A stretch of 64,000 bases of DNA from Nitrosopumilaceae archaeon (GCA_965207375.1 OZ242274.1:1632001-1696000); one strand, 5' to 3'. Numbered from the stretch's first letter, positions 42,201 through 48,200 are shown. Made by a program: the numbers.

Positions 42201-45200
42201 TACAGTAATGATAAGGAAAGTATGATTACGATTGCCAAACCGATGTTGATTATCATACTTGCAAATAATTTTTTCAATACATGTAGTTATGTTAGCCTAA
42301 TTTAAAACATGTCAAACTCTTATGAGAGTTTATCTCTAGAAAAAATATTTAATGTAAAAATGAGCAATATGTAGTATTTTAAAAGAAGCATGCCGTAAGT
42401 TAATATCAAATTTAATATAATGCAAGTGTAAATGGAATATAATCACATTGAAAAACATAACAAGCAAAACAAAAACAATACTATTTGCAGCCCTAATCAC
42501 TGCAATGATTCTACCATTTTCATCAATGAATGTGCCTAGAATGGCATATGTAGGAATCATAGACCTAGTCTCTTACCAATCAGGCACGGCAACACCTTAA
42601 TGGTAGGATCCATCATTTCGATCTTTATTGTGAATACTACGCCTAGATTTACTCTATTCTTTTGTGACCCTTCAAATTCATGCCTAAAATCACCATAACC
42701 CCAAAACAATGTTTACCAATTACAAAAAAAAGATGAAAACAGATATTGTGGAAAAAGTTGTATTCGTCAATAAGGGACACGTGATATGTTCTAGAGATCG
42801 ACTAATTGAGGTGCACTCGTCATTTTTGCATGATTATTCTTAGAGTTATTAATATGACATAATATTTAGACATGAATTTTTTATTTTGTAAAATAGATTT
42901 TATTAAATAACATAATTATTACATGTTTGTTCCTGTCATATTTTATTTTTTAATTATTCTATTATCATTTGAGCCTAAATCCACTCATGCATGAACAAGT
43001 ACATTCATCAGAAATACAAATAGTTAGTATTTTTTTAAAATTTTTATTGTGTTTGTAAAAAAATATAATCTCTTTACAATGTGTATTTTTTATTTATGAT
43101 GCAAGTTTGACATGTTTTAAATTAGGTCAACATAACGACAAGTATTGAAAAAACTATTACTTACAAGCATTATAATCAACATTGGTTTGGTAATTGGAGT
43201 CATATTTTCCTTGTCCTTACTATACGATGAAGTTTTCAAACTAGAAGGTGACTGTGATGTTACAAAGGAACATGCAAAATTAATTGCAGAATATGGCAAA
43301 AGATATCATGACCTTCCACTAGAAGAAAGAACTGCATTGGATAATGAATTTAATATGATCCAGGCCAATTTTGATATAAAGAACGGCAATGGCACGCAGG
43401 AAGAGTTTGATGCAGAATATTACAAATTATTAGACAGGTATGGTATTGTGGCATTTTGGTATTCCGAAGATGAGCTACAAGAACTATTTTATCGCCTAGT
43501 ACACTTGTGTAGTGATTATAGTTAATGCATCAATAACATCATGTCTAAATTTTTATTCTATCTGATGAAAGTGATTTTGTATATGAAATTTGAGCTGCGT
43601 TACAAGATTACGTGAAACTCTTACGTTAATGCCAACACTGTCTAAACTATTGAAAGATGCTTAAGATTCACTGCTATATGTCCAATTTTAGGTACGGTTC
43701 ATACAAACGCGTAGCACAGGACCTAAAGATCCATTGTGAAAGACATGAGAGGAGATTCGTAATTAGAAAATCACGCCTAACAAGAGCAAAAATCCGTGCC
43801 CAGATCTAATTACGAATCCTGTCTATGATAGATTTTTGTATATGAAATTTGAGCTGCGTTACAAGATTACATGTAATTGCTTATACTTGCAACAAGAATC
43901 CATAATTTCTCATTACTTTTTCATATCTGATGTATTCGTCAATCTACTAGATGATGTCAGAAATATTGGAATTTTTATCCATCTAAAACTCATAAATTCA
44001 AACATTAACCCATAAACAATATGAAAACCCTGATAATACCTGATATTCACACAAAATTTCAGATTGCAGAATCAATCATAAAAAGTGAATCACCAGACAG
44101 TATTGTATTTTTAGGGGACTATTTTGATGCATTTAATGAGACTGAACAAGACACTCACAATACTGCAAGATGGCTTGCAACATCACTGCAACAGCAAAAC
44201 AGAATACATTTGATTGGAAATCACGACCTGCCATACATGGCTGACAATCCAGTGTTTTTGTGTTCGGGATTCTCCGAATCTAAAAAATACATTATCAACT
44301 TGTATGATATACCGTGGAATAAAATGCACACATACTGCTATGTTGGAGACCATCTGTGTACCCATGCAGGAGTAAGCAAACAGTTCTTTGAAGAGCACAG
44401 TACAGATACTCTTAACGAGTTTATGAAACAATCAACAGAGGATCTCAAACATATTGATGATGTAAATTATTTACAAAAGTTTTTCCGTGCAGGAGTTTTG
44501 CGCGGTGGTGTGCACAAAAATGGAGGCATAGTATGGTGTGATTATAACGAATTTACGGACATTCCACATATTAAACAGATATTTGGCCACACAAGAGCCA
44601 CAAATGTAAGACAAAACAAAAATCACATCTGTCTTGATACTGAACTACACAACTATATCATACATCAAGACAGTACCTTAATTGTAAAAGAGATATAAAT
44701 TTACAAATTCAATAATTTATGCATGTGGTACAATTGAGGAATGTCAAACATATCAAGTTTAAGATTAGAAAAAATGGCAGTTAACTCGTACCAAATCACA
44801 TTATCGTACTTGTAAAAAACAATCAGGACACAATACATCAAAACAGAGCATCACAAAATCTACTAATATTTACAACACATACAGACACAATTGATATAGA
44901 AAATACACTAAAATCATTTTGCCAAGAATTGAAACAAACCCAATGAAATAATCATGTTAAATATGCAGCAGGTTCTTTAGGCTTTATTGCAGATATCAAC
45001 GGTTGGGTTTTTGATCAAATCATTTGAATTCATGTACTCTAGATAAATTGTTATACGTCAGATGCCACATCTAAAATCTTTGACAGATAATTTGTGTAAA
45101 AATGAACAGTGTAATACTAGTGATTAATCTGATTTGAACAATTTAAAAGAAGATAAAAAGTACGGTGCCCGAGCGTATTGGTGATTTATTCTTCTGAAGG

Positions 45201-48200
45201 GTACCGTATTTATAATGAGTAACAAGCCTGTTAAAAACATTGCCGAGATCGCCTAGTCTGGTAAGGCGCTCTTCTGAAGAAAGAGCGTATTGGTGTACGC
45301 GTGGGTTCGAATCCCACTCTCGGCGCTTGTTTGATTATCTGATAATTTCGTTTAACCAAAGATGTCAATTCTTTGACATGTGCAACTGTTAATGCGTGTG
45401 TGATAAAATGCCATGATGATTATTTTGTTTAAAGGTGTTTGAAAAATGATTCTTCAGCGTTATCTGTTGGTCAAAGTCAATATGCAAATTTTCTCCGGAT
45501 TGCCCGTGCCTAAAATTTCTTCAATTGTCACATAGTTTGTTCTTGTGCAGGTAAAAGAGATCAAAAATTTAACCATTTTTTCAAAATTTGTTAACCTACA
45601 TGATCCAAATGTATCACGACATGTAGTCCCATCGAAGTATCACAATGATGGGACTAACATATCAAAAATCATATACAAGATCAAAATTTAAACTACACAA
45701 AAAATTTAAAGATATATGGAATAAGACATCGGTACTGCTTACGCGCAGTACTGACAAAATGGCAAGAGTTACTAGATGGATGAGTACACGTGTATCTTGG
45801 AGCAAGGGTGCACAAGGGCGTGGAAACCGTGCCTTGAAAATACTGAATACATAAAATTGGTGCGGACCCCGCTAGAAGGAGACCGATCATCAATGTACAC
45901 TTTAGCAATAGGAGGCAACACAGGACATGAAAGACAAAAAATCAAAATGGAGCATAGATGAGAAGGTACGTATCGTACTGCAGACCTTTAACTCAGAGAC
46001 CAGTATGGCAGAATTATGCAGACAGCACAACCTGCAACCCAGAACAGTCTATACCTGGAAGGAAAAATTCCTCGAAGCAGGCAAAAGCTCGTTTAGTGGC
46101 TCCAATGTGTCCTCCCTTGCCAAACGTCACAAAAAAGAGATCTCTTCTCTTAAGAGGATAATAGGAGAGTATGCAGTGGCAAATGACGCTTTAAAAAAAA
46201 CGTTGGAGGGAAACAAAGAATGAGTGCAGTGTCTATCATGCACGATATCATAGGACTCAACAAATCCTTGCGGCTTTGCGGAGTATCAAAAAAGGCATGG
46301 TACTATACTGCAAGTCCAAGAGACATACCACCTGATCCGCAGGTACAAGATGCAATACTAAACATCAGCTCATCTAGGTCAACCTATGGAACACGACGTA
46401 TGGCAGCACAGGTCTCTAGGGTTCTAGGCAGGGTTATAACACAAACTAATATATCGTAGTTAGTGTTATAACAGTACTTCCGATTATAGATCACAGGTCA
46501 CTATTTAGACAATATTTTTTGACATACAGATCCAAATAACGGAATAATCCTACCCATCTTAACCTTGAGAGAAAAAGATGGGCAAGATATCCCAATAAAA
46601 TCAGGAACACGAGGGTTTAAAGTATTTCAATCTGCACTAGGCAGGCTGCCCATTTCGTTTGGAACAGGAAACAACACGAGGTATGGACTCTCAAACGCAG
46701 TCAACATGCTACAGGTCATGTCAGTATACGGCGTGGCTGCCAACAGTGCACACCAATACGCTCCTTCAGGAATAGATATTCCAGGCGGAGACTGGCTTGT
46801 ACAAAAGATAACCACAATCGATCATGACGACATGATAAAACATGGAGAAAAGATGATACACGATACTGTTGATGTACGCCAAATGAAGCTGGACCGCAGA
46901 AACGGCAACAACCAGACGCGCGTTGCAGCAATAGACAAACACAAGATCCCACACTATGACAAAGACCCTGACATGACAGATATGGTATACTCAAAGCATC
47001 ATGCAGGAACATACGTCTTTGAAGCATACATGACTGCCAAGATGGTCTCAGGTGCAAAAGAATTTCATCTTGCAATGGTTCCAGTAACTCGGAACAAGTT
47101 TAACCCTGAATTCGTGCGTAAAACCATACAAAAATGCGATGATTTAGGTGCTGATGTGAACATATACTTGTTGGACCGTGAGTTTTATGCATCTGATGTT
47201 ATGGATACAATACAGAATCTCAAAAAACATTTCATAATGCCTGCAGTAAAGAATGCGGGAATCAAAAAGGCAATATTTCAATATGCCCAAGGAAAGCGCG
47301 ATGCAATATCACAGTATACCTTTGATAATGGATTTGAATTTAATTTGATCATAGTACCAAATCCCAAAAAACCTGATGCAAAAAATATCTTTGAGAGATA
47401 TCATGTGTTTGCAACATCATTGCCGTGTACAGATTCTGATGACATGTTGAAATACATTCCTAAAGCATACAAAACGAGGTGGGGGATTGAGACTGGATAT
47501 AAACAGGCAAAATCTATACGTCCATACACCACAAGCAAGAATTCCTCAATGCGGATGTTGATGTTTGTTGTATCTGTAATCCTATCTAACATATGGATAG
47601 ATTCGCGGATAGAGGTTGCCCATCAGACATACAATATTACACTTGTAGCCTTTGTAATGCAGATGGCTCATGCATATTTTGAGTGTCACTCAACTTGGCC
47701 GCCCCCCAATAAATCGGCATAGTCTGGATTTAAAATCGGAAGTACTGTATAACCCCTCTCTATTTCCACATGAGGGACATAGTACACCAATGTTCAAGTC
47801 GTATGTTTATGCTATTGCCCTCCTTTGTACCTGTAACATCTTGTTGTAGATGTGTACCTTGAGATTAATCTCTTGTATGATGTTTTCCCACGTTACAGCA
47901 GATACCGAATCACCAAACAGTCGCTTAATTGATGATATTACTATCTCAACTATCCATCTTTTGCCATATTGCACCCTTTTTTTCCAGACCTTCCTGTTTG
48001 CCTCGCGTTCTTCTTTTGTCAGATGTGCAAATTTTTTAGGATCTGATACACCACCACCTAGTTGATCAATGGCTGCAAGAGTACGATCCCTACTGACACC
48101 ATCTGAACGCGTATTTGCATTGTGTTTTATTCTGATGCATGGTTTGATTTTTAGCTTTTTACATAATGCAAATATTTTACGCGAGTCAAATCCACCGTCT

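Follow-up and report, generated by a model that had tools for sequence, protein, structure and literature searches.

A short hairpin element lying beside an unusual tRNA gene in the genome of a Nitrosopumilaceae archaeon (GCA_965207375.1) is the subject of the present analysis. The stretch examined, hereafter the window, comprises 64 kb (OZ242274.1:1632001-1696000, which is C1:1632001-1696000 in the contig names used here), and positions given without a contig name are counted from its first letter. The hairpin occupies 45161-45208 and carries two exact copies of parts of a tRNA gene that begins 34 nt further on, and it may be the body of a small gene for an RNA antisense to that tRNA. The genome, referred to as G000, comprises 4.3 Mb in four contigs (C1-C4) with a G+C content of 37-38%, and the related genomes returned by a genome search are of about 1-2 Mb and belong to one family. 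Its gene content, which includes the proteasome alpha subunit and ribosomal protein L3 as well as some intron-bearing tRNAs, fits an archaeon of the Nitrosopumilaceae kind.

The tRNA gene and the hairpin beside it

The tRNA gene, the putative target, lies on the plus strand at 45242-45326, where ARAGORN calls an 85-nt tRNA-Phe with the anticodon GAA. Rfam places the same interval in its tRNA family (RF00005) with 55.7 bits against a cut-off of 29, and the cloverleaf is seen in the minimum free energy fold (-35.4 kcal/mol, z -3.38). The body, in turn, is that of a class II tRNA of the Ser type, with a long variable arm (15-16 nt), G73, and a D-arm that departs from the tRNA-Ser genes of G000 at two of 20 letters. 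In the anticodon loop, CTGAAGA (with G37), the gene matches the canonical tRNA-Phe (C1:1921024) letter for letter. Serine elements and a Phe anticodon are thereby combined in a single gene, as in mixed-identity tRNAs; a weaker archaeal serine element, G30-C40, is missing and T30-A40 is found instead. Serine identity is described as residing in the variable arm and G73, independently of the anticodon (PMC9976931). Because seryl-tRNA synthetase (SerRS) ignores the anticodon, the window tRNA would read UUY codons as Ser if it is made and charged. The earlier note had argued that the odd anticodon is real, and we agree: it is mirrored in the loop copy described below, and contigs from three sequencing runs (X1, X3 and X4) span 44700-45484 with 0 differences. 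Since these contigs carry an identical GAA, the anticodon is not an assembly slip, with the proviso that the runs may come from the same strain as the assembly.

The hairpin upstream of this gene has a 10-bp stem formed by TACGGTGCCC (45161-45170, the 5' arm in plus-strand sense) and GGGTACCGTA (45199-45208, the 3' arm), which closes a 28-nt loop. In the loop, segment b (GAGCGTATTGGTG, 45171-45183) is an exact direct copy of 45283-45295 of the tRNA gene, that is, of 13 nt at tRNA positions 41-53, which cover positions 41-43 and, in the variable arm, the 5' strand and the loop; the repeat search filed the two loop copies as families D2 and D4. After an AT linker of 6 nt (ATTTAT, 45184-45189) comes segment a (TCTTCTGAAG, 45190-45199), found by the same search as an exact direct copy of 45270-45279, that is, of 10 nt at tRNA positions 28-37. 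It takes in the anticodon stem's 5' strand plus the loop as far as G37, and its last G belongs to the first stem pair. The order of the two segments is swapped relative to the tRNA, and the copies lie 80 and 112 nt from their counterparts. Stem, loop and both tRNA matches are thus exactly where the earlier note had placed them. The loop copies are far beyond chance: where 100 shuffles give an expectation of 0.00 for the 13-mer in the window and of 0.13 for the 10-mer, three and two occurrences are observed, and one of the 100 shuffles had two or more of the 10-mer.

Signals that could serve transcription flank the hairpin on both sides. On the minus strand, a T-rich run, CTTTTTATCTT (45150-45160), with T5 at 45159-45155, lies 3' of the hairpin and is a putative small-RNA stop; oligo-T ends transcription in archaea, and analogous modules described below have A5-A9 on the plus strand at this place. 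On the other side, an AT-rich spacer of 33 nt (45209-45241; 33-37 nt in the analogous modules) holds two opposed TATA-like boxes. The plus-strand box, TTTATAAT (45209-45216), is at -33..-26 of the tRNA, and the TATA-like box of ordinary G000 tRNA genes is at about -33..-24. The minus-strand box, TTTTTAAC (45237-45230), lies 22-29 nt before the stem. This box and the T-run, both reported in the earlier note, are present in the sequence. A scan for sigma-70 promoters and terminators, which is unsuited to archaea, gave nothing at the hairpin. The 3' arm of the stem ends one base before TTTATAAT, which itself stands at a normal distance from the tRNA, and the inverted repeat might accordingly act on the DNA level, as a site at the B recognition element/TATA box that binds a regulator or forms a structure, with the tRNA-like letters being incidental. 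We consider such a promoter control site very improbable. It leaves unexplained both the identity to tRNA positions 28-37 and 41-53 and the way in which analogous copies track the changes of their tRNAs, and a dimer binding site with arms spaced by 28 nt would be unusual.

We instead favor, at a confidence that falls somewhat short of even, an antisense RNA read from the minus strand, which would cover two parts of a miscoding tRNA: its anticodon arm and its variable arm, the latter being the serine identity arm. The hairpin would then be the body of a small gene divergent from the tRNA gene. The transcript would begin near 45208, roughly 25 nt past the TTTTTAAC box, and stop in the T-run at 45159-45155, so that the putative RNA (45150-45208, minus strand) would be about 55 nt long, as suggested by the geometry and by analogy with the modules described below. 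Its 28-nt loop would present the complements of tRNA positions 28-37 (anticodon stem and loop) and 41-53 (variable arm); if the minus strand is transcribed, complementarity to the adjacent tRNA, 34 nt away, is perfect over 10 + 13 nt. Pairing would begin loop to loop, the anticodon loop meeting CUUCAG and the variable loop meeting CACCAA, 10 nt apart, and would then extend into the stems. The Ser-body tRNA with a Phe anticodon would be charged by SerRS and insert Ser at UUY codons, and pairing would keep it from charging or decoding, so that the small RNA would be a regulator or an antitoxin of the miscoding tRNA, or both, its toxicity and neutralization being presumed. The copies fall on the parts that matter, the anticodon arm (28-37) and the variable arm as chief determinant of serine identity, and a miscoding tRNA, if expressed, would need restraint. 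This antisense reading, the most likely one, draws mainly on look-alike pairs, themselves better supported, in G000 and in one related archaeon.

Ala-type modules in two archaeal genomes

Self-matches were sought by comparing each tRNA with its own 250-nt flanks, for 68 ARAGORN calls in G000 and 45 Rfam hits in G019, a 1.8-Mb genome of another genus. In G000, 56 of the 68 calls have no upstream direct self-match longer than 9 nt, and 12 have one of at least 10 nt. Body and anticodon disagree in eight of these 12: the window tRNA and seven tRNAs with an Ala-type acceptor (G3:U70, A73), whose anticodon is GAA in six cases and AAG in one. The other four are two cluster tRNAs that share the T-arms of their neighbors, one doubtful call with a 71-nt "intron", and one case of a 10-mer. 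BLAST added an eighth, decayed Ala-type copy in G000. Among 42 distinct tRNAs of G019, five have an upstream copy of 12-18 nt and the other 37 reach 9 nt at most; all five are Ala-type (G3:U70, A73), with the anticodons GAA, GAT or CAG. G3:U70 is described as the main alanine identity element, for archaeal alanyl-tRNA synthetase as well (PMC9976931). The two genomes together hold 13 Ala-type tRNA genes with the anticodons GAA, AAG, GAT and CAG, 12 of them with an upstream copy of the anticodon arm, and in 11 of these 12 the copy, some 35 nt ahead of the gene, adjoins a hairpin and an A-run; the module at C1:823190 is interrupted by an insert.

The G000 genes lie on C1 at 234286-234360 (-), 823190-823261 (-), 1233021-1233093 (-), 1341225-1341299 (-), 1355322-1355397 (-), 1407365-1407439 (+), 1444064-1444136 (+) and 1974998-1975072 (-), and the G019 loci are L202, L205 (=L033), L210, L220 and L222. 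The modules are homologous over their whole length and follow a single common layout: the end of an unrelated gene, a run of A5-A9, a short hairpin, the anticodon-arm copy (about -49..-35), and then 33-37 nt of AT-rich spacer before the tRNA. The hairpin takes the form AGGCTA/TAGCCT commonly in G000, with GCTAG/CTAGC in modules F and G, and AGACC/GGTCT or GGCCT, and GACTT/AAGTC, in G019. At C1:823262-823480 (-) the copy stands at about -215 rather than -49. A small insert seems to have entered the spacer there, as the intervening DNA contains an inverted repeat 14 nt or more in length. Five of the Ala-type genes were scored against the Rfam tRNA family and reached 56.8-63.4 bits. A mismatch at 31:39 is recurrent in the family, and at C1:1233021 both partners of the pair have decayed. 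The odd tRNAs have the look of functional genes: their TATA-like boxes are normally placed, and between module types the anticodon stems differ by compensatory changes. Rfam has no family for any of the upstream elements, in the window or in the Ala-type modules, and an integrase beside module B was left unconfirmed by Pfam.

In six distinct modules, the copy equals its own tRNA over positions 28-37 at 60 of 60 letters, even though seven of the ten positions, the anticodon among them, differ between modules. When copies were reassigned among the six tRNAs, one of the 720 permutations reached 60, namely the true pairing. Over ten modules the agreement is 98 of 100 letters, a score that none of 200,000 random reassignments reached (in a frame shifted by one nucleotide). 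Identity decays outside the block, to four of six at position 27 and none of six at position 43. Because the modules are paralogues, these counts are not independent events; despite this paralogy, many changes in the tRNAs must each have been matched in the copy. Gene conversion is an unlikely cause of the covariation, since the flanks share no similarity. The earlier note had envisaged covariation between loop and tRNA in related pairs, which holds for this analogous Ala-type class (60/60).

The modules also show a preference of strand. The minus-strand fold is the better one in all five G019 modules, by up to 10.8 kcal/mol (e.g., -11.5 versus -0.7 and -15.0 versus -8.1 kcal/mol), and in four of six G000 modules, and wobble pairs therefore exist on that strand only. 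Read on the minus strand, the A5-A9 run becomes a U-run right after the hairpin, and a TATA-like box precedes the complementary stretch by about 25 nt. Taken together, the A-run, the hairpin, the covarying copy and the strand preference point to a divergent antisense small RNA that ends in a U-run. The simplest reading of an Ala-type module is a minus-strand RNA of 45-50 nt that would begin with a 5' part antisense to positions 28-41 and continue into the hairpin and the U-run. Duplex folding of each putative small RNA against the 68 tRNA calls ranked the cognate tRNA first in five of six cases, a near-identical paralogue being first for module A; long-duplex energies discriminate poorly, and we give this result little weight.

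Strand, origin and occurrence of the window hairpin

The window element has much in common with these modules. It holds a copy of exactly positions 28-37 and ends at -34 from its tRNA (the Ala-type copies end at about -35), its spacer has one TATA-like box per strand, a T-run follows the hairpin on the minus strand, and the charging of the partner tRNA should ignore the foreign anticodon. It differs in that the copies are inside the hairpin loop rather than after the hairpin, in that a second copy (positions 41-53) corresponds to the variable arm read by SerRS, and in that the A-run has five letters only. The absence of sequence similarity to the Ala-type modules points to an independent origin.

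A further difference concerns the strand. The earlier note had cautioned that the stem has a G-U pair on the plus strand and A-C on the minus strand, and folding upholds and sharpens this caveat: the plus strand folds with -20.1 kcal/mol (z -3.17; two of 200 shuffles as good) and the minus strand with -10.7 kcal/mol (z -1.97; six of 200). On the plus strand only, the stem grows from 10 to 13 bp (45158-45160 with 45209-45211) with a second G.U, so that both non-Watson-Crick pairs are G.U on that strand. In the best plus-strand fold, CUGAA, which includes the anticodon, forms a 5-nt bulge, and the loop has no stable upper stem. These features would suit a plus-strand RNA, either a 5' leader or a separate molecule, that acts as a decoy or mimic of the tRNA loops or as an antisense to the IS (insertion sequence) transposase mRNA; the latter possibility arises as the 13-mer recurs on the minus strand of a transposase ORF (open reading frame) at 46751-46763, where the match to the tRNA extends to 17 of 18 letters. 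We nevertheless judge a plus-strand RNA improbable. No T-run follows the hairpin on this strand, and a TATA-like sequence at 45142-45149 would start transcription inside the loop. A sense copy is unable to pair with the tRNA, and the Ala-type hairpins favor the minus strand. As for mimicry, the Ala-type copies lose the 3' strand of the anticodon stem (position 43, 0/6), and since this strand is not kept they are not structural mimics. The IS match, finally, lies deep in the coding region, and a 14-mer match of this kind is expected about twice by chance.

The transposase site itself deserves a closer description. Within the DDE transposase ORF at 46565-47722, the interval 46750-46772 (-) reads as a 9-mer resembling segment a, TTCCTGAAG, followed by a 14-mer common to the variable-arm region of the tRNA; the alignment of 17/18 letters is ungapped, and the IS concerned has four copies on C1. 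The 14-mer, or the 13-mer within it, may be chance or may reflect a link between the IS and the tRNA; the figure of about two chance matches applies to an 85-nt query in 4.3 Mb.

Several known kinds of element were compared with the hairpin and rejected. A guide for modification or cleavage, which the earlier note had put forward, did not withstand comparison: the fold offers no C/D boxes, no H/ACA layout and no bulge-helix-bulge. C/D box guides have a C box (RUGAUGA) and a D box (CUGA), plus C'/D', with guides of about 12 nt between; here the minus strand has no boxes, and the plus strand has one CUGA, which is the anticodon copy, and a weak GUGAUU 6-8 nt away. H/ACA guides are hairpins that contain a pseudouridylation pocket and a K-turn or K-loop, with an ACA box immediately following the stem; no ACA lies within 3 nt of the stem on either strand, and a stable upper stem is missing from the loop. 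A split or permuted tRNA gene does not fit pieces totaling 23 nt in a continuous 13-bp helix with one 5-nt bulge, instead of two 3-nt bulges around 4 bp. An attachment (att) site remnant was rejected as well, with repeats 80 and 112 nt apart that enclose just the spacer and the 5' part of the tRNA. So was a miniature inverted-repeat transposable element or IS end: the stem-arm 10-mers occur three and four times in the genome against about eight expected, the 12-mers are unique, and BLAST of 45100-45360 found no second copy of the hairpin.

The hairpin could also be a functionless patchwork, the scar of a duplication, of template switching or of mobile-element activity at the tRNA gene, and would give rise to no RNA product. 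G000 has many partial tRNA copies, such as the Ala-type 3' fragments at C1:1344921 and C1:1437829 and the 5' and 3' fragments of Ser-type tRNA(GAA) at C1:1370290-1370333 and about C1:1372440-1372514, and a repeat of about 37-40 copies begins 120 nt after the window tRNA. A swapped block order is the expected outcome of permutation or rearrangement, the hairpin is a single instance, and the G.U pairs of its stem do not cleanly fit selection on either strand. The att sites of Thaumarchaeota are described as short, with a median of 17 bp (PMC6563490), and with such short sites and a genome full of IS copies and tRNA fragments a relic becomes plausible. We still rate this origin as unlikely, if to be taken seriously. 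The two copies are exact in unrelated surroundings; they are limited to the anticodon arm 28-37, the very block kept in the covarying class, and to the serine identity arm; and they are enclosed by a stem of 10-13 bp. The end of the hairpin element at -34 agrees with the Ala-type modules, the repeats have no element between them, neither stem arm marks the end of a repeated element, and a diverged copy of the hairpin region persists in a run from another study (X5).

This last observation rests on two contigs of run X5. One covers 45117-45218 with five substitutions and four gaps, and the other covers 45254-45347 with two substitutions, one of which, A45316G, keeps the T-stem pair as U.G. Both continue into unlike sequence, and 45219-45253 is uncovered, so that the joint between the two pieces is not seen; together they suggest that hairpin and tRNA persist together in another context.

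Other searches bear on how widely such elements occur. BLAST of 45140-45340 against 41 genomes (G000 included) returned, outside G000, generic parts of tRNAs only. For the Ala-type module, BLAST in 121 genomes of the family found the whole module in G000 only, and a pattern for the 3' half matched in three of 401 genomes, namely G000, G019 and, as a tRNA-Val, G072. A looser Ala-type pattern retrieved ordinary tRNA-Ala genes of many phyla from genome contigs; flanks were complete for 27 tRNAs, and one of these showed a self-match of at least 10 nt, in a T-loop. A scan of viral contigs gave two matches, neither of them a tRNA.

A number of points weigh against the antisense RNA. Since the segments are swapped, the helices would cross and no single nested duplex can form, so that a double loop-loop contact has to be assumed; the three-way junction proposed in the earlier note is likewise not a nested duplex and finds no support here. 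An AT-rich stretch at -20..-1 is common before ordinary tRNA genes, and the minus-strand TATA-like box is therefore weak evidence; T5 is a short terminator. The window stem favors the plus strand, the opposite of the Ala-type class, the third 13-mer inside the nearby transposase gene is left unexplained, and the patchwork origin is, as discussed, plausible. No upstream copy precedes a second Ser-type tRNA(GAA) of G000 (C1:1996875), for which matches reach 5 nt at most. The Ser-type module is the only one of its kind found: the hairpin was found in none of the 40 other genomes of the relatives search, an exact tRNA 25-mer had no match in metagenome contigs, and a degenerate pattern of the Ser D-arm with CTGAAR had none in genome, metagenome and viral contigs, both of the latter searches possibly excluding records of the genome itself.

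The second Ser-type tRNA(GAA) (C1:1996875-1996976, +) has, as we read its sequence, a 14-nt intron at 37/38 with a canonical bulge-helix-bulge, and this intron pairs with its own anticodon. The fragment at C1:1370290-1370333 (+) is a 5' fragment of this tRNA, and that at about C1:1372440-1372514 (-) comes from the 3' part of a relative whose anticodon resembles GAG, 2 kb from the 5' fragment and in the opposite orientation.

Genomic setting and relation to known systems

The locus lies in mobile DNA, with IS copies and an AbiEii-like gene at most 5 kb from the hairpin and the tRNA. Upstream, three paralogous ORFs of 119-126 aa (40814-41194, +; 41918-42277, -; 43145-43525, +), with an N-terminal hydrophobic segment and no Pfam match, are followed by a gene for a calcineurin-like phosphoesterase at 44021-44698. 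Downstream, an overlapping gene pair at 49294-50677 (+) shows a weak match to a helix-turn-helix (TrmB-like) domain and a weak match, below the cut-off (E 0.0046), to the AbiEii nucleotidyltransferase toxin; beside two IS transposase genes, it is a possible candidate for a type IV toxin-antitoxin pair. A high-copy repeat begins 120 nt past the tRNA (45445-45530 and onward). Its first 80 nt occur in about 37-40 copies, all on C1 and none on C2-C4, and the depth of the run X1 contig rises there from 133 to about 10,000. Contigs C2-C4, 2.14 Mb together, hold 14 of the 68 tRNA calls and no copy of this C1 repeat, and, in a family whose genomes mostly measure 1-2 Mb, they could be replicons of their own or large mobile elements. 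Among their tRNAs are three tRNA-Thr and one tRNA-Gln that form a tight cluster and share T-arms (C3, 493.2-494.3 kb), and several tRNA-Arg (C4, 791-807 kb).

One may go a step beyond antisense control and ask whether the pairs form an all-RNA toxin-antitoxin or addiction module. Such a module would consist of a correctly charged tRNA that miscodes, its body being of the anticodon-blind Ser or Ala identity and its anticodon that of Phe, Leu or Ile, together with an antisense RNA of 45-55 nt, an overlapping divergent promoter and a coevolving anticodon arm, and it would have been built independently in at least two forms, the Ser-type form of the window and the Ala-type family, on mobile DNA of ammonia-oxidizing archaea. 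We regard this extension as speculative and rather doubtful, and a toxin-antitoxin function of the pair is pure inference.

Miscoding tRNAs have been known as rare curiosities, and RNA antitoxins have been known for mRNAs. If the proposal is true, cells or mobile elements would keep "mistranslation weapons" under an RNA lock, which would constitute a new archaeal route to growth arrest, addiction or regulated proteome noise, and nature would be seen to exploit the anticodon-blind identity rules of Ser and Ala tRNAs. The covarying Ala-type pairs would then be a ready-made orthogonal set of tRNAs and anti-tRNAs, and this class is of interest even if the window hairpin is a relic.

Among known systems, CopA/CopT, RNA I/RNA II and RNA-OUT are antisense hairpins of plasmids and transposons, with the recognition sequence in the loop and the promoter facing the target gene. 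The putative RNA of the window resembles them as a short hairpin RNA with loop-presented recognition and a promoter opposing its target; its target, however, would be a folded tRNA and not an mRNA or primer, and it has two recognition blocks in swapped order. The split and permuted archaeal tRNA genes of Nanoarchaeum, Caldivirga and Thermofilum have leader and trailer helices next to position 37/38. The element recalls these in having a 3' piece before a 5' piece, complementary flanks, and a 5' piece that ends exactly at 37, but its pieces are of 13 and 10 nt, a bulge-helix-bulge is lacking, and a complete gene lies next door. Like thaumarchaeal att remnants, it includes short direct repeats (10-18 nt) that correspond to a portion of the adjacent tRNA gene, and the genome abounds in such fragments. 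Thaumarchaeal elements use the 3'-distal part of the tRNA in all but one of the cases described in the account consulted (PMC6563490), whereas here nothing is integrated between the repeats, the anticodon arm is copied, and analogous copies covary with their tRNAs.

The type VIII toxin-antitoxin system CreTA of Haloarcula hispanica, in which both partners are RNA and translation is hit (PMC12737573), is similar in having two small adjacent genes, a putative RNA antidote that acts by base complementarity, putative harm to translation, and a setting in mobile, defense-rich DNA. In CreTA, as reported, the toxin is an mRNA by which a rare tRNA is sequestered (PMC12737573), whereas the putative toxin here would be a complete miscoding tRNA, and the putative antidote would pair with the toxin RNA itself, with no need of Cascade and with no CRISPR-like repeat. 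Mixed-identity tRNAs, such as tRNA-ProX of Streptomyces, Sec/Cys hybrids and the yeast CUG tRNAs (PMC11415595), likewise join the body of one amino acid to the anticodon of another and rely on a synthetase blind to the anticodon, here that for Ser and in the analogous class that for Ala. tRNA-ProX is described as working with its own synthetase, ProRSx, and in the part of that source available to us the mixed-identity tRNAs have no dedicated antisense partner and no archaeal case is named (PMC11415595). A literature search, in sources available in part, likewise turned up no natural antisense RNA dedicated to a tRNA. A complete miscoding tRNA and a dedicated, covarying antisense RNA are combined in none of CreTA, tRNA-ProX and the loop-presenting antisense RNAs, and the hairpin element would represent antisense-RNA control in a new form.

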